The notes under the pieces: generated by a model
Seen by the model: only the letters and a program-made list of their open reading frames with translations
Databases searched by the model: none
What the model was told of the DNA's origin: nothing
Part shown: one piece after another, positions 22,901 to 31,553 of the stretch
Numbering within the stretch: the stretch's first letter is position 1
Layout: each line of letters opens with the position of its first letter
Position numbers and translations under genes: made by a program
Origin: a virus
Length of the DNA: 64,000 nucleotides
Direction: 5' to 3' (one strand)
IMG/VR virus record: IMGVR_UViG_3300037461_001787
Span: 1 to 64,000 of that record

Positions 22901-25371
22901 ATCTTGCCCGGGCGAAGGCCACGGTGCTCAAAGATTTGCCTGAGAAAACCACTTCGATCGTCAAACACCCGGTGGTGGGATTGCCTGACATGGGCGATGA
23001 GAATTCGGTTGGAGCGATCAGCAAGCTCAAGGCGGAAATCGCCAAGGGCAAGGTGCCGGTGACCAAGGCGATGGTGCAGGAGATCCTGGATACCTCGGAT
23101 TCGCATGTCATCGTCTTCACCGATTCGGTTGAGGCGGCCAAGCAGATCCAGGAGGCTTTCGGCGATGAGGCCATCTTGCATCACGGGCAGTTGAGCGACA
23201 AAGATCGCGATGCGGCGGTCAAAGAGTTCCAGAAAAAGGATGAGGCCGGAAACTTCATTTCGAAAAAGCGCGTCTTTGTCACCACTCGCCAGTCGATGGC
23301 GGTTGGCGCGACGTTGACGGCGGCCGATAAGGTGGTTTTCAACGATCTGCCTTGGACTGCGGCGGATGTCAGGCAGGCCGAAGATCGTGCGCATCGCATC
23401 GGGCAGAAGAATGCGGTCAATGTTTACTGGATGACCGCTGAAGGAAATCTGTTCGATGAAAACGTGAACGACATTCTCAAGCGCAAGTATGAGCTAGGGC
23501 AGAAGCTCAATCAGGGCAAGCAGCTCACTGCGGCAGAGATGGAGTGGATGAGCAAGCCCATTACTGCTGCGGAGTTGCTGGCGCAGATCCACGGCCAGGC
23601 GGCGGGTCCGAAAGAAGGGGCAAGTGCGGAGGGAGCAGAGGAGCCCCCCGCTCCTCAGGTTCCAGCTGCGGAGGATATGGCGCACCCCGAGCTGGCTCCA
23701 CCATTGCCCGAGCCGCAGGAGACGCCAAGTGAGACGCTGCCTGGCTCTGCGGTGGTCATCGACGTGCCGATGCCTGAGCTGGTTGCAGCTGCTCCAGTTC
23801 CAGAAAAGCTGAAGGAGCCTGTGCCTGAGCCGGTTCCAGAAAAACCGAAGGAGCCTGTCAAAGTACCTGTTGCGGAACCTGAGCCGGTAGCGGAGCCAAC
23901 ATTGCTTGGCCCTGGTTCCGCGCCGGTTCAGGTATCTTTTGAGACGTTCATTGGCAAGCATGGCGTGAAGATCCGTGAGCATAAATCGGATCCGACGAAG
24001 GTGATGATCAAGGTTCCGAAGCACGAGAGTGTGGCATTGGAGAAGCTCAAAGACTACGGGGTGACCGAGACGCCTTTCGAGGGCGGGCAGTATCACTTGA
24101 TCGCGACATCAAAGCAGAAGGTCAAGGATCTGCTATTCGCCAAGTCGTTTTCCGCTTTTCTGGAATGGGATGTCCCGGTGCAGCTCAATCTGTTCAAAGC
24201 CGCTGCGGTCGGTGGCCCGTTCATCGGACCGCGCGGCGGCAAGTGGGCGGACCCTGAGCACACCATCTCTTGGCAGGAGGGCGGCGGGCAAACTCCGGTC
24301 GCGGCTGGGCAGCAACCTGAGTCGCCAAAGCCTGCGGCCGAGTCTCCACCCATTTTCTGGAACGCGGAGCAGAATATCGAGCCTTACGTGGGCGCGACCT
24401 TCACTCCGGATCCGACGCATGACGCAGATGGGGATGGGGTGGCCGATGCGGCCCGCGTGGGCGTGCCGGCATTCCAGGTTCCGCCGTTGCCCCCGATTGG
24501 GCGGTTGCCCAATTTGACCGCGGCTGAGCGCGAGATGGAGGACAAGTTTGCATCGACCTACGAGCAGTACCCGGAAGAAATGGCGGACGCCTTCTATCAG
24601 GAGGCGGCAAAAAACAACTACGTCTTTGAGACGGACGCGGCCAAAGCGCTCATGCCTGAGTGGAGTCGTCCTGATTTGCCTCCTGATCAAAAGGGACAAC
24701 CGATCAATCCAGAGCGCGCCCAAACGCGGGCGCTGTTCAACACGGCGATGCACCAGACGGCCAATGCGATCGCCAAGCGCGCGTTCATCAAGCGCCTAGA
24801 TGAGATCGCGAAGATGCCTCCCGAGAAGCGGACCATCCTGGTCACTTCCGGCGGGGTTGCTGGCGGCAAGGGCTCAGCGCTGGCTGCCAAGCCAGAACTT
24901 GCCCAGTCGGTCTCGGCGACCTGGGATGCCGCGGGGGAACAGAATGCTACTGAGAATCCATGGCTGCTCGCCGAATGCGAGAAGCGGGGAATCAAGCCTG
25001 TGTTTCTGTTCGTCGCTGCGGACCCAGCCAAGACTTGGCCTGGGGCTGTCGAGCGCGCCAAAGGCATTGGGCGCATGGTCGATGCCCGGGTGTTTGCGGA
25101 TTCCTATGCGCATGGGGCGAAGAACTTTGCTGCTTTTCATGAGAAGAACAAAGATCGTGCGACTTTCATCTTTGCGAAGGCAGCGAAGGGCCAGCCGGCA
25201 CAATTTTTGGACAAGATGCCTCCCGAGGCGCTCTCGACTTCTGCGGACCAGGTTTACGAGGACGCCATGCAGTATGTCGAGAAAAACAAGGCTTCGCTGC
25301 CCCCGCACATTGTCACGGGAGCTACCGCGGGCCAGCGCATTTGGGGTGCGGCAGGAGGAGCGAGCGCATGA
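19936..25371 (+). CDS. polyvalent protein: SNF2-family helicase (intein-split) plus C-terminal zeta-toxin-like P-loop kinase
   Basis: YQ.EG, GDEMGLGK[intein]T, DESH, LSGT, RAHRIGQ helicase motifs; second P-loop TSGGVAGGKGS...RA..IGRMV; two copies of the GPxIGPxGGKWAD tag. Confidence 0.88.
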   Translation: MRLELQATPEEIREKSGQLLERLGELLSGDVPEFTDALEKALPAKEQELKYPVLRELAAKSRELYAHQVDRMIREIAEVIDEAVDIQKSMEADFLEKGGPYIGPKGGKWADPQHTIHWTGDESEQSRQMAQHSGPPEGVKPLPDEAAKALLISMGDLLYGLQHGLHNIQDDSGFNHYDFSYWHSVRGNLSGMRKMLKKYKGQIDSHLGSKAYYEAGLHLVEKTTGVKVQPQYHATFGSLMLPLDGYFKGDFKQYCSAVKAYGAQFDGNKKCFFIPKLKLAGFDFAAYKADMAKFGIEVADPIGVPAKPSTSGEVAIPHAAPSPSAPKSVEEIISGIHSNHVKDTIVVRLREDGIFEFHSPYAPAFNALFANKGGQLSGITKYNPITHARETFDLDLTEEAIEKLKALFPKWKIVTQGVKEARIKRDQEIAELQKPIPEVQEKLDPAFKLMSYQNEGVRFLDKADGNALIGDEMGLGKAASVDERILTPQGWKRFGDLQVGDEVIDPETGKAARVAGVYPQGMREVWELATKDGETIECDAEHLWHVYTAMDRYRENGGKVLTTAQLLAEGVRTGHGKGQYRWYLPVAVAQEFEFRGALPVPPYVLGVLIGDGAIAHSAVGWTKPDVEIVDRVASLLPEGCAVAPHEVAPDKCPTWGISGIGGKNAILDGLRELGLQGCTSLEKFIPERYLFASIEDRKQLLAGLMDTDGDTPVGATCIYSTSSKRLAEDVIFLARSLGCMASLSTKKAPRYRHNGEVRIGQPSYRVNIRAAFNPYFLERKAEHWEESSLARPVADIRRTDRQVEMQCIAVESVNNTFILHGHVVTHNTIQTLAWAAKNNKKVLVVCPKVVRKNWLEEAHKFFPEHFKGAELVAAQLKKGQVPDLSDVNIATVNYESLSKFEEAIKAAGFDTIVIDESHRAKNPKAQVTQNLQKIGAGMKHHILLSGTAIKNKKEELFTQLDMVAPGKFTKNAIKTASIGGLWLDMHAFYLARAKATVLKDLPEKTTSIVKHPVVGLPDMGDENSVGAISKLKAEIAKGKVPVTKAMVQEILDTSDSHVIVFTDSVEAAKQIQEAFGDEAILHHGQLSDKDRDAAVKEFQKKDEAGNFISKKRVFVTTRQSMAVGATLTAADKVVFNDLPWTAADVRQAEDRAHRIGQKNAVNVYWMTAEGNLFDENVNDILKRKYELGQKLNQGKQLTAAEMEWMSKPITAAELLAQIHGQAAGPKEGASAEGAEEPPAPQVPAAEDMAHPELAPPLPEPQETPSETLPGSAVVIDVPMPELVAAAPVPEKLKEPVPEPVPEKPKEPVKVPVAEPEPVAEPTLLGPGSAPVQVSFETFIGKHGVKIREHKSDPTKVMIKVPKHESVALEKLKDYGVTETPFEGGQYHLIATSKQKVKDLLFAKSFSAFLEWDVPVQLNLFKAAAVGGPFIGPRGGKWADPEHTISWQEGGGQTPVAAGQQPESPKPAAESPPIFWNAEQNIEPYVGATFTPDPTHDADGDGVADAARVGVPAFQVPPLPPIGRLPNLTAAEREMEDKFASTYEQYPEEMADAFYQEAAKNNYVFETDAAKALMPEWSRPDLPPDQKGQPINPERAQTRALFNTAMHQTANAIAKRAFIKRLDEIAKMPPEKRTILVTSGGVAGGKGSALAAKPELAQSVSATWDAAGEQNATENPWLLAECEKRGIKPVFLFVAADPAKTWPGAVERAKGIGRMVDARVFADSYAHGAKNFAAFHEKNKDRATFIFAKAAKGQPAQFLDKMPPEALSTSADQVYEDAMQYVEKNKASLPPHIVTGATAGQRIWGAAGGASA
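21367..22416 (+). mobile_element. class 3 intein with LAGLIDADG homing endonuclease, inserted in the helicase Walker A motif (GK|T)
   Basis: Starts with Ala; block B CDAEHLW, block F MQCIAV, block G VVTHN followed by Thr+1; LGVLIGDG and LAGLMDTDG endonuclease motifs; 350 aa. Confidence 0.92.
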
Positions 25372-26699
25372 AGCATGAGCCGCAGAACGGTACGCGAGTA
25401 GATGGCTCCACTGTCGAGCAGATCAAAAAGTTCTTCGCTGCGGGATTGGCCGCTGTGGACGCCGATCCGCAGAAGTACATCGAATGGGAGCGCGACCGCG
25501 ACAACAACACTCCGCCTTTTGTTCCGCCCGGGCAATCGAGCCAGCCGTTGAAAAAGTCGGGGCCCTATGTGGGGCCGAAAGGCGGTCTCTGGGCCGACCC
25601 GCAGCACACTCAGCATTGGAGCCCTACGCCAATTTCTGGAACGCTTTCGACCTGGGCGCAGCAGTTGGGCGGTAAAGTCGTGCCGCACAAAAGTAACCCG
25701 AGTTTGGTGGTTGTGAAAATTCCCCATGCGCAGGCCAAGGCACTTGCGCAATTCAAGCAGAGCCAAGGGATCGAAGCTCCGATCATTCCTGGCGGGAATT
25801 ATTTGCTCTTGATGTTACCTACGACCTTTCAACCTGCATTGAAGGGAGCGCACGGTGAACAGTCAACAAAGGCGAAAAGCGTTGCGGGAGAAGTACCATC
25901 TCCGAAAGCACCAGCTGGCCCAGATCCGATATCGGGATCCGGATCCGGCGCCGGTGCCGCTCACCCCGGCCATCAAACCCTTGATCACTTCTCCGGTGCA
26001 GCGGACTCGCTGGCAGAGGCTCATGCTTGGGTGGCTGAGCGGGCTCCACATTTGGATGTCCATTATCCAGACTTGGCTACCGCCAATGCGACGAACAAAG
26101 CCCTGAGCGAGCAGCATCCCGAAGTGGTTAAGCATTTGCGCTTTCTCGGCACCCCGGAACAGTTGCACGTTTGGGCAAAAAAGCATCCAGAAGAAAACCA
26201 GATTGCGCTTTCTGGAAATCATCCGATGGATTTGACCAAGAGCAGCCCGCTTGCGAGCGCATGCATTGCGCTTGCTCATCCTTACGATCAAAAGCCGTAC
26301 AAACGCTCGGTGATGTTGGTACAACCGAAATTTTTCAATGAAGGGTACGCTACTGCGACCAAACTGGATAACCATTTCACTGTTGGGCAAGGGCTCATCT
26401 CGACTATTCGCCATGAGTGCGGTCACGTTGAGGCATTTGTTCTTCGCCATCTGCGGCCAAAGGGGGCGAAGCTCTCTTGTTGGGAAATCTGGAAAAAGCA
26501 TTGCGTCCCTCAGCTCAAGCAGAACAAGAAAGCGCTCATGCAATCGATTAGCGAGTATGCTGCGACCAATCCGCATGAGTGTTGGGCAGAGGTCTCGGTA
26601 GCGCGACGGAGTGGATTGCCTTTGCCCGAATGGGTGCACAAGGCCATTGCCGAGATGCAAATCGATAGCGCAAAGTGGCATGAGTTGCGCCATGAGTGA
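25368..26699 (+). CDS. zincin-like metallopeptidase effector (MPTase type) with tag motif
   Basis: HECGH plus ISEYAATN.HE.WAE; LKK|SGPYVGPKGGLWADPQHTQHW tag; ATGA overlap and GGAGG RBS. Confidence 0.82.
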   Translation: MKHEPQNGTRVDGSTVEQIKKFFAAGLAAVDADPQKYIEWERDRDNNTPPFVPPGQSSQPLKKSGPYVGPKGGLWADPQHTQHWSPTPISGTLSTWAQQLGGKVVPHKSNPSLVVVKIPHAQAKALAQFKQSQGIEAPIIPGGNYLLLMLPTTFQPALKGAHGEQSTKAKSVAGEVPSPKAPAGPDPISGSGSGAGAAHPGHQTLDHFSGAADSLAEAHAWVAERAPHLDVHYPDLATANATNKALSEQHPEVVKHLRFLGTPEQLHVWAKKHPEENQIALSGNHPMDLTKSSPLASACIALAHPYDQKPYKRSVMLVQPKFFNEGYATATKLDNHFTVGQGLISTIRHECGHVEAFVLRHLRPKGAKLSCWEIWKKHCVPQLKQNKKALMQSISEYAATNPHECWAEVSVARRSGLPLPEWVHKAIAEMQIDSAKWHELRHE

Positions 26700-27212: not shown

Positions 27213-30200
27213 ATGCTATTGACCCCCGAGCAGTTGCAGAAAATTTCGGCCATTGTGGAAAAGTACCACAACGCCTTTATCGTCTCAGCCATTGGGCCCG
27301 AGGCCGTTCCGCCTGAAATTTTGCAAGCGTTGGAGAAAGAGGGGCTCATCGAAGGGCATCTCAATTCGATTGAACAGGCTTATCTTTATGGCCAGATTTT
27401 GGGGATGATCCAAAACAACGCCACAGCCAAGATGGGATTCGATGCTTTCCAGAAATATCTGCGACAGCATCCGGTACCGCTCTCGGAGCCTGAGCAGCGG
27501 GCGGTGAAGTTTGCGCAGCTTCAGGCGGCGGGGTACATCAAAGGCCTGGGCAACAAGGTGAGCCAGACGACTGGGCAGTTGCTGATCAACGCGGATAAGG
27601 CGCTAGAAGCAAAGCTCCAGAAAATTGTGCGTGATAAAACCGCCGAGAATATCGCCAAGCGGGAGACGGCCAAGCAGCTGAAAACGGATCTCGGTTGGGC
27701 CAGTGAAGACTGGACCCGTGATTGGGACCGAATCGCAGTGACGGAAAAACAGAATTCCATGCAGTTCGGCATGGCTGATCATTTGGCGAGTCGCTTTGGC
27801 CCCAAGGGATTGGTGGCCAAGCGCACCATGCCCGACGCCTGCAAGCATTGCAAGCGGCTCTACGATGGACCCGACGGCAATCCGCGCATCTTCCCGCTGT
27901 CGGTGTTGCTCTCGAACGGCACCAACGTGGGCAAGAAGGTCAATGATTGGCAGGCGGTCATCGGAACGGTCCATCCCCACTGTGCGGTCATCGGGACGAT
28001 GGTGCAGACCCCGCATGGCGAGATTGCGATTGAGCGTTTGGCGCCGGGCGATAGTATTTTGACCCGCCACGGTGTTGGCGTGGTGAGCCACGCTTGGCGA
28101 TCGTGGTACGAGGGGCAGATTGTGGAGCTGACGCTTTCGACCGGGCGGGTGTTGCGGGTGACCCCCAATCACCTGCTATTTTGCATGCCCGAATGGCGCG
28201 AGGCAGGTTCGCTGAAAGCAGGGGGTGAGTTGCGCGAATTGACCGACAGCTCGATTGGGAAACTGTCCACTATACTCAACACGCGCAAGGTTCCAGCCGG
28301 TTTCGACAAATTCGATTCCGCGGCGGTTTTGCATGGCTTTGCTGCGAATGAGGTGCCAGTTACGGTCATCTATCTGGATGGTGAGTTTTATTTGCGTGAA
28401 GGCCCGATTGACATGGAGAATGTTGAGTGGGTTGCGGGTGACCGGCGAAAAGGCAAGGAGCTGCGGGTTGCGGAGCAACCTGCATTCCGTTTTCGTTTTC
28501 ATCCCACCACTGAGGGATTGCGCACGGGGGATCAAGTTTTCTCGCGAGTTTCGCTTTCGGCGCTAGGAAGCATAGGGTGCTTCCAGGAAGCTCTCATCAC
28601 TTTTTGTCCCGAGTTCTGGGGTGCACGCGATAGCGTAGCCACCTCCCGAGACCTCCAGCCTGCGGCTTATCGCTTGCACGGGGCGCAGCTTCTCAAAGTG
28701 CGGATGCAAGAGAGCGGGGATATTGAGTTTGATCCGGTAGGAGCGATCATCTCTGAATTCGGGCCCCATGATGCGGCCCAGTTCGTTCGCCCGGTCGCGA
28801 TTGCTGACGTTCGCGTGCTGGGCTACAAGGGCGTTGTTTACAATTTCACAGTTCCGGGAAGTCATACCTATGTGACCGAAGGCGTGATTTCGCACAATTG
28901 TCAATGTCAGCTCATCCGCGTACCGGATGGCTACGGCTTTGACGAACAAGGTGCGCTTGTTCCGGGCGGCCAAGGCGGCAAGGTGTACAAGAGCGAAGAG
29001 GCGCTTGCCCGGGCGTTGCTGCGCGAAGACGATCTCCAGAAATCGATTTCTGGAAAGGACCCTGTGATCGCGCTTTGGGAACTGCCCATCCACATCGAAA
29101 ACAAGGTGGGTACTGAGCGTATCTGGCATACCCCGGACGGGGGCACGGATTCGACTTTCATGCTTTGCGCCTACGGGGAGATCGTGGGCAGCGAAGGCGC
29201 TGATGGAGACCCGCTCGATGTTTTCATTGGCCCGGATCCCGATGCTGCGATGGTCTACATTATCGAGCAGCAAAATCCTGAAACGGGAATCTGGGATGAG
29301 CAGAAGTGCCTGATGGGCTTCTCCAACCAGGAGCAAGCCGAGGCGGCCTACCGGTTGCACTACAACCGGCCCGAGCGCTTCTACCTGCAAACCAATCCCA
29401 TGGTGCTTGACGCTTTTCAGCGTTGGGTGGGGATCAACCGTTTGGCGTCGGCCGAAGAGCGCCCGGCTGTACGGCTGGTCATTCCGTTGGGACCGAAGAT
29501 GGGGAAATCTCAAGTGCCGGCGGAAATGGGGGCTGCGGACTCCCCAGCCGGAAATCGCGCAGGCGGGCACGGCACTGCAACGAACTATCTGGTCGAGACG
29601 CCTAAGCGGCGCGTTCCAGAAAAAGGCAAAACTCCGGGCATCGATCCGACTGATTTGATCCACGATTGGACCGAAGATGAGGAAGTCGGAGACAATCTGA
29701 AGCGCGACAAGGAGGTCTACGACGTATCTGAGCCGCTGCGTAATGTCTATCCGATCCATCTTCCCGCTCAGGCAATCACCGGCCAGGATTCGGCGCGAGA
29801 AGGGACCGAAGAGCGCAGGCGGTACGTCATCGGCAATTGCGCGAAGACAGCGCTTCGCCCCCAGGATAAGGTCGAGCTGGAGAAGTCATTCGCCATGCAC
29901 GGGGTTATTGCGACGGGCCCGCGGGGAGGGAAGATCATTGGCTGGGATGGGCCCAATCCCATCTACTATCGAGAGGGGAAGGAGACCAATACCCCGGGCT
30001 GGATGCAGCGGTTGGTGAGCCACATGGGCGGCAAAATTGTTCCGCACCTTGAAAACCAAGATTTGATCGTGCTCAAGGTCGATCCCCAGCATGAGGGAGC
30101 GTTGGAGCAGATTCGCAAGCACTTCCAGGTTCAAAATCCGATTATCAAGGGCAAGCGCTACACCATTTTGGAAGTGAAAAAGACGGTGTTCGAACAGATG

Positions 30201-31553
30201 GAGAATGAGGACCCCTATAAGGTATTCCCTGTCACTCCTCCGAAGCATATCGAGCTGTCAAAGTTTGGGAAGGTGATTACCAAAGAGACTGAGCGGCAGG
30301 GCGAGTTTGAAGTGGCGGGGCATGAGGCGATCAAACCACCGCCAGTGTTCAAAGGATTCTTGTGCAAGGGCGCGCGGGTTACGTTGCAGGTGAAGGGGTT
30401 CGAGGGCGAAGGCGCTATATTCCATGGGAATGATCAATTTGGGCAGCCGATCTTCAAATTGGATCATCCACACGGCAAATTGACGGAAATCATTCAGCCG
30501 GATTTCAAAAAGGTGAAATCCGTGGAATCTGGCCCGTCGCACTACAAGCCTTCAACCGCGAAGGTAGCGGATAAGGACATCATCAAACCGACCGCGCATC
30601 AGCAGGCGTTGCTCGATGAGCTGATCGAAAAGACTGCGGTAGTTGGCGGTCATGTTGCCAAGGAATATTCCGACTGGCTGTGGAAGCACGGCCGGGAAGG
30701 CTACGTAGTGGGTGGCGCTATCCGCGATTTGATTTCTATGACTGCGCCGGGGCAAAATCACGCGGACAAAGACATCCTGGAAAAACTCAAGGATGTGGAT
30801 TACGTCATCACGGGTAGCGGCGATACCTCCCGCCAGTGCTTGGTGGCGGTCGCGGGGGGAGACATGGGCGACCTGGCTTGCAATGCCGGTTCAGATAAAT
30901 GGATGACCCATTCGGCGTTATTTTCTGGACCGGGGATCGACATGACGGGCATGGTGTCATTCACGACTTCCGATGGTGAGGGTTGGAAGAATCCGGTCAA
31001 TGGTCAGGAGTGTCCAAATATTCGGGTTGACCACGAAATCCAGAAGGACACAGCGCGGCGTGATTTTACCGTAAACACCCTTTACTACGATCCGCAGAAC
31101 AAGGTCATTATTGACGTGACCGGCATGGGCATCGCTGATGCGCAAGCGCATGTGCTGCGATTGGCGGTTCCGATTTCAGAGATGCCTACCACGCATTCTA
31201 TTTCACTCCGTTATTACAAGTTTCGCTTGCGGGGTTGGGATGGGGATGCCAGTACCCATGCACAATGCCGCAAGCATTTTGACGAGGTTTTCGGCAATCT
31301 CCCGACACAAGCAAAGGCGGGTGTTCTGTACCGGACGATTTGCAAGAAAGGTGGAACACCCGAAGAAAATCTGGAAAAGCTCCGCGCGCTGATGAAGGTT
31401 GATGGCGATGAGGCGCTGTTTGACAAGCATATTCAAAAAGTCTGGAATGCTTTGCTCGAAGACATAAAGAGTATCACGAGTGAATATGCCAAAAAGGAAT
31501 CGGATGCCAAGGCCAAAGCGGAAGAAGCAAAGAAGCAGTTGAAGAAGCATTGA
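27213..31553 (+). CDS. polyvalent protein: MuF-like head morphogenesis domain (intein-split), inorganic pyrophosphatase, and class II (CCA/poly(A)-type) nucleotidyltransferase
   Basis: RIAVTE, CKHC, HPH[intein]CQC (MuF); YG.I.G.EGADGDPLDVF...DE.K (pyrophosphatase); VVGGAIRD, DVD, RRDFTVN (nucleotidyltransferase). Confidence 0.88.
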   Translation: MLLTPEQLQKISAIVEKYHNAFIVSAIGPEAVPPEILQALEKEGLIEGHLNSIEQAYLYGQILGMIQNNATAKMGFDAFQKYLRQHPVPLSEPEQRAVKFAQLQAAGYIKGLGNKVSQTTGQLLINADKALEAKLQKIVRDKTAENIAKRETAKQLKTDLGWASEDWTRDWDRIAVTEKQNSMQFGMADHLASRFGPKGLVAKRTMPDACKHCKRLYDGPDGNPRIFPLSVLLSNGTNVGKKVNDWQAVIGTVHPHCAVIGTMVQTPHGEIAIERLAPGDSILTRHGVGVVSHAWRSWYEGQIVELTLSTGRVLRVTPNHLLFCMPEWREAGSLKAGGELRELTDSSIGKLSTILNTRKVPAGFDKFDSAAVLHGFAANEVPVTVIYLDGEFYLREGPIDMENVEWVAGDRRKGKELRVAEQPAFRFRFHPTTEGLRTGDQVFSRVSLSALGSIGCFQEALITFCPEFWGARDSVATSRDLQPAAYRLHGAQLLKVRMQESGDIEFDPVGAIISEFGPHDAAQFVRPVAIADVRVLGYKGVVYNFTVPGSHTYVTEGVISHNCQCQLIRVPDGYGFDEQGALVPGGQGGKVYKSEEALARALLREDDLQKSISGKDPVIALWELPIHIENKVGTERIWHTPDGGTDSTFMLCAYGEIVGSEGADGDPLDVFIGPDPDAAMVYIIEQQNPETGIWDEQKCLMGFSNQEQAEAAYRLHYNRPERFYLQTNPMVLDAFQRWVGINRLASAEERPAVRLVIPLGPKMGKSQVPAEMGAADSPAGNRAGGHGTATNYLVETPKRRVPEKGKTPGIDPTDLIHDWTEDEEVGDNLKRDKEVYDVSEPLRNVYPIHLPAQAITGQDSAREGTEERRRYVIGNCAKTALRPQDKVELEKSFAMHGVIATGPRGGKIIGWDGPNPIYYREGKETNTPGWMQRLVSHMGGKIVPHLENQDLIVLKVDPQHEGALEQIRKHFQVQNPIIKGKRYTILEVKKTVFEQMENEDPYKVFPVTPPKHIELSKFGKVITKETERQGEFEVAGHEAIKPPPVFKGFLCKGARVTLQVKGFEGEGAIFHGNDQFGQPIFKLDHPHGKLTEIIQPDFKKVKSVESGPSHYKPSTAKVADKDIIKPTAHQQALLDELIEKTAVVGGHVAKEYSDWLWKHGREGYVVGGAIRDLISMTAPGQNHADKDILEKLKDVDYVITGSGDTSRQCLVAVAGGDMGDLACNAGSDKWMTHSALFSGPGIDMTGMVSFTTSDGEGWKNPVNGQECPNIRVDHEIQKDTARRDFTVNTLYYDPQNKVIIDVTGMGIADAQAHVLRLAVPISEMPTTHSISLRYYKFRLRGWDGDASTHAQCRKHFDEVFGNLPTQAKAGVLYRTICKKGGTPEENLEKLRALMKVDGDEALFDKHIQKVWNALLEDIKSITSEYAKKESDAKAKAEEAKKQLKKH
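27981..28898 (+). mobile_element. intein in the MuF HPxC motif, with an inverted endonuclease relic in its centre
   Basis: Cys1 CAVIGT, block B VTPNH, block F VYNFTV, block G ISHN followed by Cys+1; 306 aa; no LAGLIDADG motif. Confidence 0.9.
28270..28430 (-). pseudogene. degenerate DUF559/Vsr-like (PD-(D/E)XK) endonuclease relic, antisense within the intein
   Basis: Minus strand reads HVNRAFTQIKLTIQIDDRNWH...QNRRGIEFVETGWNLARV, compared with the family pattern D.AFP..KLAIE.DG..WH...D..RD..L...GW.V.R. Confidence 0.65.

Follow-up and report, generated by a model that had tools for sequence, protein, structure and literature searches.

The predicted relic of an antisense Vsr-like homing endonuclease gene within an intein of a MuF-like phage head protein

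Inteins and concealed homing endonuclease genes

Full inteins with an anti-sense VSR-like endonuclease have been described in the minor capsid (MuF-like) proteins of actinobacteriophages in a 2025 preprint (bioRxiv 10.1101/2025.01.02.630785), which also refers to previous anti-sense LAGLIDADG cases and expects antisense ORFs of this kind to gather stop codons once homing stops. The first link between inteins and the Vsr-like/EDxHD nuclease family came from 'fractured genes', where a free-standing endonuclease of this type is located between the halves of a split intein (Dassa et al. 2009, PMC2677866; I-Bth0305I, PMC3239194); an antisense arrangement is unmentioned in the former (PMC2677866). 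A hidden, out-of-frame HNH endonuclease is found in a phage methylase insertion, the ShiLan domain (PMC11855218), while PhoVMA is a canonical large intein with a degenerate in-frame LAGLIDADG domain (PMC8966425).

The stretch of DNA analysed here (the window) comprises the first 64 kb of the 109-kb record of an uncultured phage with a G+C content of 55%. Like the class described in the preprint, it has a MuF-like head gene that contains a contiguous intein, with an opposite-strand nuclease inside the intein and a sense-strand centre lacking a recognizable fold, and the nuclease gene extends from a start at 28769 to a stop at 28176 in the register shared by all ten embedded loci identified in this study. 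It differs from that class in that the window copy appears to be the kind of relic predicted there, with an internal stop and lost catalytic residues, and in that the host is a MuF-like/InPase/nucleotidyltransferase fusion of an uncultured phage rather than an actinophage protein. The two-strand layout is already described in the 2025 preprint and only the decayed state is new here; the exact codon register and the stop-codon logic do not appear to be discussed in that text (bioRxiv 10.1101/2025.01.02.630785).

As in the 'fractured genes', a nuclease of the same superfamily accompanies a phage intein as a separate gene rather than as an in-frame domain, but in those systems the host gene is split into two parts and no coding sequence overlaps the nuclease, whereas the window intein is contiguous with both strands coding. 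The ShiLan nuclease is likewise a homing nuclease gene hidden beneath an in-frame host read-through of double-coding DNA; it is, however, encoded on the same strand in another frame, belongs to the HNH type and is found without an intein splicing domain. PhoVMA represents a comparable late stage of the homing cycle, in which the intein still splices while loss of active-site residues has disabled its nuclease, but that nuclease is an in-frame intein domain, while that of the window is a separate antisense gene whose decay is filtered by the sense frame.

We consider it highly probable that the window intein belongs to this known but rare class, that its antisense Vsr-like nuclease is dead, and that the central part of its sense translation is a tolerated spacer rather than a new domain. 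The homing endonuclease of the class (HTH plus Vsr/DUF559/EDxHD-like core) is a separate opposite-strand gene, lying codon against codon on the central spacer of the intein. By the established logic of the genetic code, which was checked on two stops in the window, a stop on one strand of such aligned codons can face only TTA, CTA or TCA on the opposite one, and since only these three leucine and serine codons need to be avoided, both frames can be kept open cheaply. In active copies, occurring at the same site (L025) and at a neighbouring site (L004), the nuclease presumably cuts intein-free alleles, into which the intein is then copied. In the window, the nuclease would have died through a premature TAG, replacement of Asp by Asn and of Glu by Gln, and the loss of further conserved residues. 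As the sense frame is needed by the head protein and could not be lost, this decay would have proceeded via sense-silent or tolerated substitutions and in-frame indels.

The intein and its host gene

The host gene (27213-31553, plus strand) encodes a 1446-aa head-protein fusion of unusual composition, with a MuF-like head N-terminal part, the intein, an InPase domain and a PolyA_pol-head/tRNA-nucleotidyltransferase-like domain. The N-extein (27213-27980, plus strand), which ends in ...GTVHPH, is unnamed by Pfam and PHROGs, but shares 47.6% identity with the L025 host protein up to the same junction. The Pfam Phage_Mu_F family does not match the host protein, which is designated MuF-like from its context and its Cys motif. 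The C-extein (28899-31553, plus strand) incorporates a CQCQ motif, followed by the InPase (PF18823; e-value: 1.9e-29) and PolyA_pol-head (PF01743; e-value: 1.9e-12) domains, and the PHROGs matches of this part are to a minor head protein and a tRNA nucleotidyltransferase. A repeated module, GP.GG..W.....GGK.VPH..NP.L.V.K, is common to an upstream ORF (window 25341-26699) and the C-extein (29900-30100), and caused the locus matches in L005 and L008 to run on into the adjacent gene.

The region 27981-28898 (plus strand; 306 aa), which the original prediction had delimited as an intein with normal splicing blocks, corresponds exactly to one. It begins with Cys1, carries the block B motif TPNH at residues 61-64 and ends in SHN at residues 304-306, with a Cys at the +1 position, such that the nucleophiles and blocks expected of an intein are in place. 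The Pfam Intein_splicing (PF14890; Bitscore: 47.8, against a cut-off of 35.8; e-value: 1.8e-12) and Hint_2 (e-value: 4.6e-6) families both match, and all Pfam and PDB-sequence intein matches are confined to the two ends containing the splicing blocks. By comparison against the same two databases, plus-strand residues ~85-265 have no match, in agreement with the earlier observation that the centre resembles nothing on this strand, and an AlphaFold2 model of the intein built from two sequences reached a mean pLDDT of 37, too low for interpretation.

One full-length homologue of the window intein, P0003 (56% identity), could be identified and is known as a protein only. The DNA encoding it was not recovered when the intein alignment was used to scan viral, metagenome and genome contigs, while a degenerate DNA pattern derived for it gave four matches, all attributable to chance. 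Nine phage loci were fetched with P0003, seven of which represent related phages in which the site is intein-free and uninterrupted (HPHC(Q/A/S)CQ). The same insertion site is occupied by an intein in P0003 and in L025 (GTVHPH/C...SHN/CRC, with slashes marking the junctions). The sequence thus identifies the window insert as a genuine intein, placed in-frame in a conserved host motif for which intein-free alleles exist; it appears splice-competent and is predicted to splice. A different intein is located 50 residues upstream in the same gene of L004 (PDA/CKHC). As the latter sits at a second site, and the seven relatives have neither intein, the Cys motif of the host gene appears to offer two homing sites.

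The nuclease gene on the opposite strand

A search for relatives whose antisense nuclease is intact had been proposed as a check on the original prediction, and such relatives were found in L025, L004, L014 and Gordonia phage Malisha. The L004 locus (L004:1628-2539; IMGVR_UViG_3300036979_001044) contains a second intein with an intact antisense nuclease in a close relative of the host gene. On the minus strand of this intein, in the shared register, lies an open gene for the 196-aa protein P0006, with an HTH-like N-terminus and the core NIDIAIPHLKIAIEVDGGGWH...GWIVLRV. Pfam assigns P0006 to MTES_1575 (PF18741; e-value: 6e-7) and DUF559 (PF04480; e-value: 4e-4; Bitscore: 20.6, equal to the cut-off), while a word-index search with the protein gave no match and AlphaFold2, run on the single sequence of the intact nuclease, yielded a mean pLDDT of 54, likewise too low for interpretation. 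L025, with its intein at the site used in the window, encodes an intact antisense nuclease of 206 aa; intact copies are further found in another MuF gene (L014) and, in the same intein and antisense nuclease layout, in gene 5 of Malisha (L108; OP434458.1). The Malisha gene is annotated in GenBank on its sense strand only, as a 'hypothetical protein', and the antisense HTH-plus-nuclease gene is unannotated; it starts within an antisense frame that spans 371 codons across the intein from stop to stop (L108:1998-3113, minus strand).

When viral contigs were searched with the intact nuclease, 80 loci were returned. In ten of these, representing nine distinct sequences, a long opposite-strand ORF completely encloses the nuclease ORF and is codon-aligned with it (10/10), while the remainder encode free-standing or fused nucleases. 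A Hint or intein-splicing domain is present in 9/9 further hosts scanned and Phage_Mu_F in 6/9; two hosts are fused to a portal protein and one (L025) to InPase. The Malisha host matches VG15, and those of L025 and L082 have no MuF-type match. The intein centre of P0004, an 844-aa helicase-like protein of NCBI source, is odd, low-complexity and charged, and could be the shadow of an antisense gene. The codon-aligned antisense position is the native layout in all ten embedded loci, as in the preprint class (bioRxiv 10.1101/2025.01.02.630785), and the proposal that the window nuclease had been inserted or flipped in reverse within the intein is therefore not supported.

The corresponding minus-strand sequence of the window (28179-28769), with its ATG at 28767-28769, is interpreted as a fossil homing endonuclease gene of 197 codons, collinear with its intact relatives of 196-206 aa, and matching P0006 in length. 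It consists of an HTH-like part, a linker and a nuclease core (28269-28511, minus strand; profile positions 133-212), and terminates at its natural stop, a TAG at 28176-28178 on the minus strand, which is read in the sense direction as the Leu codon CTA within block B and has the same relative place in L004 and L025. Both start and stop occupy the same positions relative to the splicing blocks as in intact genes. The peptide and its register are as originally predicted: plus-strand codons and the minus-strand ORF 28176-28535 start at positions divisible by 3, so that the same triplets are read on both strands.

For full-length comparison the fossil was read through its one internal stop (X). 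BlastP of the window antisense peptide against intact P0006 gave an e-value of 4e-7, pairwise comparisons of the relic with five independent intact copies ranged from 2e-5 to 1e-3, and the alignment with L026 crosses the internal stop (fossil residues 50-163). With Pfam, the antisense peptide alone matches only MTES_1575 (PF18741), at 12.8 bits against a cut-off of 38.2 (e-value: 0.12); no Pfam cut-off was reached and PF04480 was not matched. We take MTES_1575 to be part of the same Vsr/DUF559-like group. When the antisense peptide was compared by phmmer with 1.84 billion representatives, no nuclease was recovered, the only match being a tandem-repeat junk protein (P0005). A custom profile, constructed solely from the nine intact antisense nucleases embedded in other phage inteins, ranks the window ORF 28179-28562 (minus strand) first among 1,611 six-frame ORFs (hmmsearch; Bitscore: 19.7; e-value: 3.9e-5). 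The profile comparison proposed for the minus-strand peptide was thus negative with Pfam but positive with the dedicated profile, and the assignment to DUF559/Vsr-like nucleases is upheld by the latter and by the pairwise alignments. The HTH-like part is collinear with that of the relatives without reaching significance.

Long codon-aligned antisense ORFs are common in G+C-rich genes, and a nuclease motif could have been read into one of them. Many such ORFs occur in the window, including one of 398 aa over the extein (28563-29759, minus strand), and the Pfam e-value of 0.12 would by itself agree with a chance resemblance. Against the custom profile, however, the relic is the sole significant match among the 2,818 six-frame ORFs of the whole 109-kb record (e-value: 6.8e-5), and homologous intact genes share its place, strand and register in orthologous and paralogous inteins, which renders coincidence extremely unlikely. 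When synonymous plus-strand codons were resampled with the plus-strand protein held fixed, the profile score fell to 4.7 ± 7.2 bits, compared to the observed 19.7 bits, which only 32/1000 resampled sequences reached. This rarity suggests that the wobble sites still remember the nuclease and that its decay is incomplete. The sequence comparisons as a whole support the presence of a fossil HTH plus Vsr/DUF559-like homing endonuclease on the antisense strand of the window.

Several changes point to the loss of nuclease function. A premature TAG (28563-28565, minus strand), read in the sense direction as CTA (Leu195), separates the HTH-like part from the nuclease core, and is specific to the window lineage, since the aligned sense residue of P0003 is Ala. 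At profile column 166, the Asp of the 'niD' motif, predicted to be catalytic and present in 64/64 unique relatives, is replaced by Asn in the window (28407-28409, minus strand; sense ATT for Ile, where ATC would restore Asp). At column 177, the Glu of the IAIE motif is replaced by Gln (28374-28376, minus strand; sense CTG for Leu, where CTC would restore Glu); this Glu is invariant among the relatives, a figure inflated by the KIAIE[VC]D pattern used for their retrieval, although the VAVEV subgroup and Malisha retain it too. The columns of the Asp, a Gly, a later Asp and the Gly-Trp pair lie outside the retrieval pattern. Further conserved residues have been replaced in the relic (Ala by Thr, Gly by Asp, and a later Asp), while Gly-Trp, an Arg, a His and one Asp of the core are kept. 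The four sense-silent changes put forward earlier as restoring consensus residues, at ATT 28407-28409, CTG 28374-28376, GGT 28380-28382 and CGT 28395-28397, proved correct. The inactivating changes fall at sense wobble positions, and the predicted decay through sense-strand wobble is accordingly supported; with the shared register, the sense wobble position is the first position of the antisense codon, and wobble changes thus hit the nuclease.

A shortened protein, for instance one that binds DNA without cutting it, may conceivably still be produced from the 119-aa ORF 28176-28535 (minus strand), which persists with a possible TTG start, retains the core residues named above and has a codon choice that is not yet randomised. 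We regard this as very unlikely. The HTH part, being encoded upstream of the stop, would be absent from such a product, neither of the invariant acidic residues is preserved, and no similar protein was found in the databases. Furthermore, no promoter-like site was seen on either strand in 28000-29300 and no ribosome-binding motif precedes the old ATG. Instead of the open, expressible ORF expected of the antisense class, the relic combines an internal stop with the absence of both these signals. Several intact copies, unlike the relic, have GGAGG before the ATG. In L045, L057 (=L014), L082 and L095 this motif is located 6-8 nt before the antisense nuclease ATG, within sense codons of the C-terminal splicing block, such that the ribosome-binding site is itself double-coded. 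The window nuclease is, as judged from these features, a dead pseudogene relic and not a working family member.

Selection on the two strands

It was originally suggested that, after the death of the nuclease, the sense read-through became a sequence selected for itself, representing a new domain derived from an antisense frame. All 197 codons are open in the sense direction, the relic is as long as intact genes, the inactivating changes are sense-silent, and the 55% sense identity between the cores of the window and P0003 exceeds that expected after long neutral drift, all of which would suit such an origin. The only constraint evident on the sense centre, however, is freedom from stop codons, and the requirement for the head protein suffices to account for this openness. 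Moreover, sense identity between the window and P0003 decreases from 76% in the splicing blocks to 55% in the nuclease core and 42% in the HTH and linker part (50-55% for the centre overall), and the centre of P0003 contains a 17-residue in-frame indel. No family, solved structure or confident fold matches the sense centre. The notion of a newly selected sense protein was therefore not sustained and is considered unlikely.

The pattern of replacements likewise points to past selection on the nuclease. Half of the radical sense replacements in the centre (9/18; among them R>C twice, G>R, R>G, S>P and A>P) are silent on the antisense strand, compared to 9/47 (19%) in the exteins (Fisher p = 0.027). 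Single-step sense replacements are antisense-silent more often in the core (54%) than in the exteins (30%; p = 0.0015), although the small splicing-block control also reaches 52% (n = 18) and this excess is by itself weak. Smith-Waterman comparison with L025 gave z-scores of 7.1 for the sense and 8.4 for the antisense translation, with two-strand identity depending on the strand that is optimised. The log-ratio of sense to antisense codon usage is +0.19 to +0.24 per codon in the window relic, but the intact L004 region is sense-like too (+0.14). Under parsimony, the Glu and Gly lost in the window may still be present in P0003, but the Asp retained in the window cannot be encoded by it, which suggests that its nuclease decayed separately from an intact ancestor. 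Apart from the z-scores and the codon usage, which do not discriminate between the strands, this evidence taken together favours past selection on the nuclease combined with a loosely constrained sense spacer over a newly selected sense protein.

It is quite improbable that, since the death of the antisense nuclease, its sense shadow has persisted at full length and now begins to be selected in its own right, serving as a structured spacer in the folding of the two splicing halves. If true, this would represent a dated case in which protein sequence arose from a known gene's antisense frame.

With the sense centre as a tolerated spacer, the reading we prefer, the window provides a concrete end-stage example of inteins with an opposite-strand homing nuclease. 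Frameshifts would not be able to remove the dead nuclease, as the sense frame opposite it belongs to an essential head protein and has to remain open; decay would instead proceed by sense-silent changes. Along with L025, L004, the apparently also decayed P0003 and the empty alleles, it forms a set that would test how double-coding DNA evolves after one of its two genes is freed from selection. It further serves as a warning to annotators that 'unknown' intein centres are worth translating on the reverse strand.
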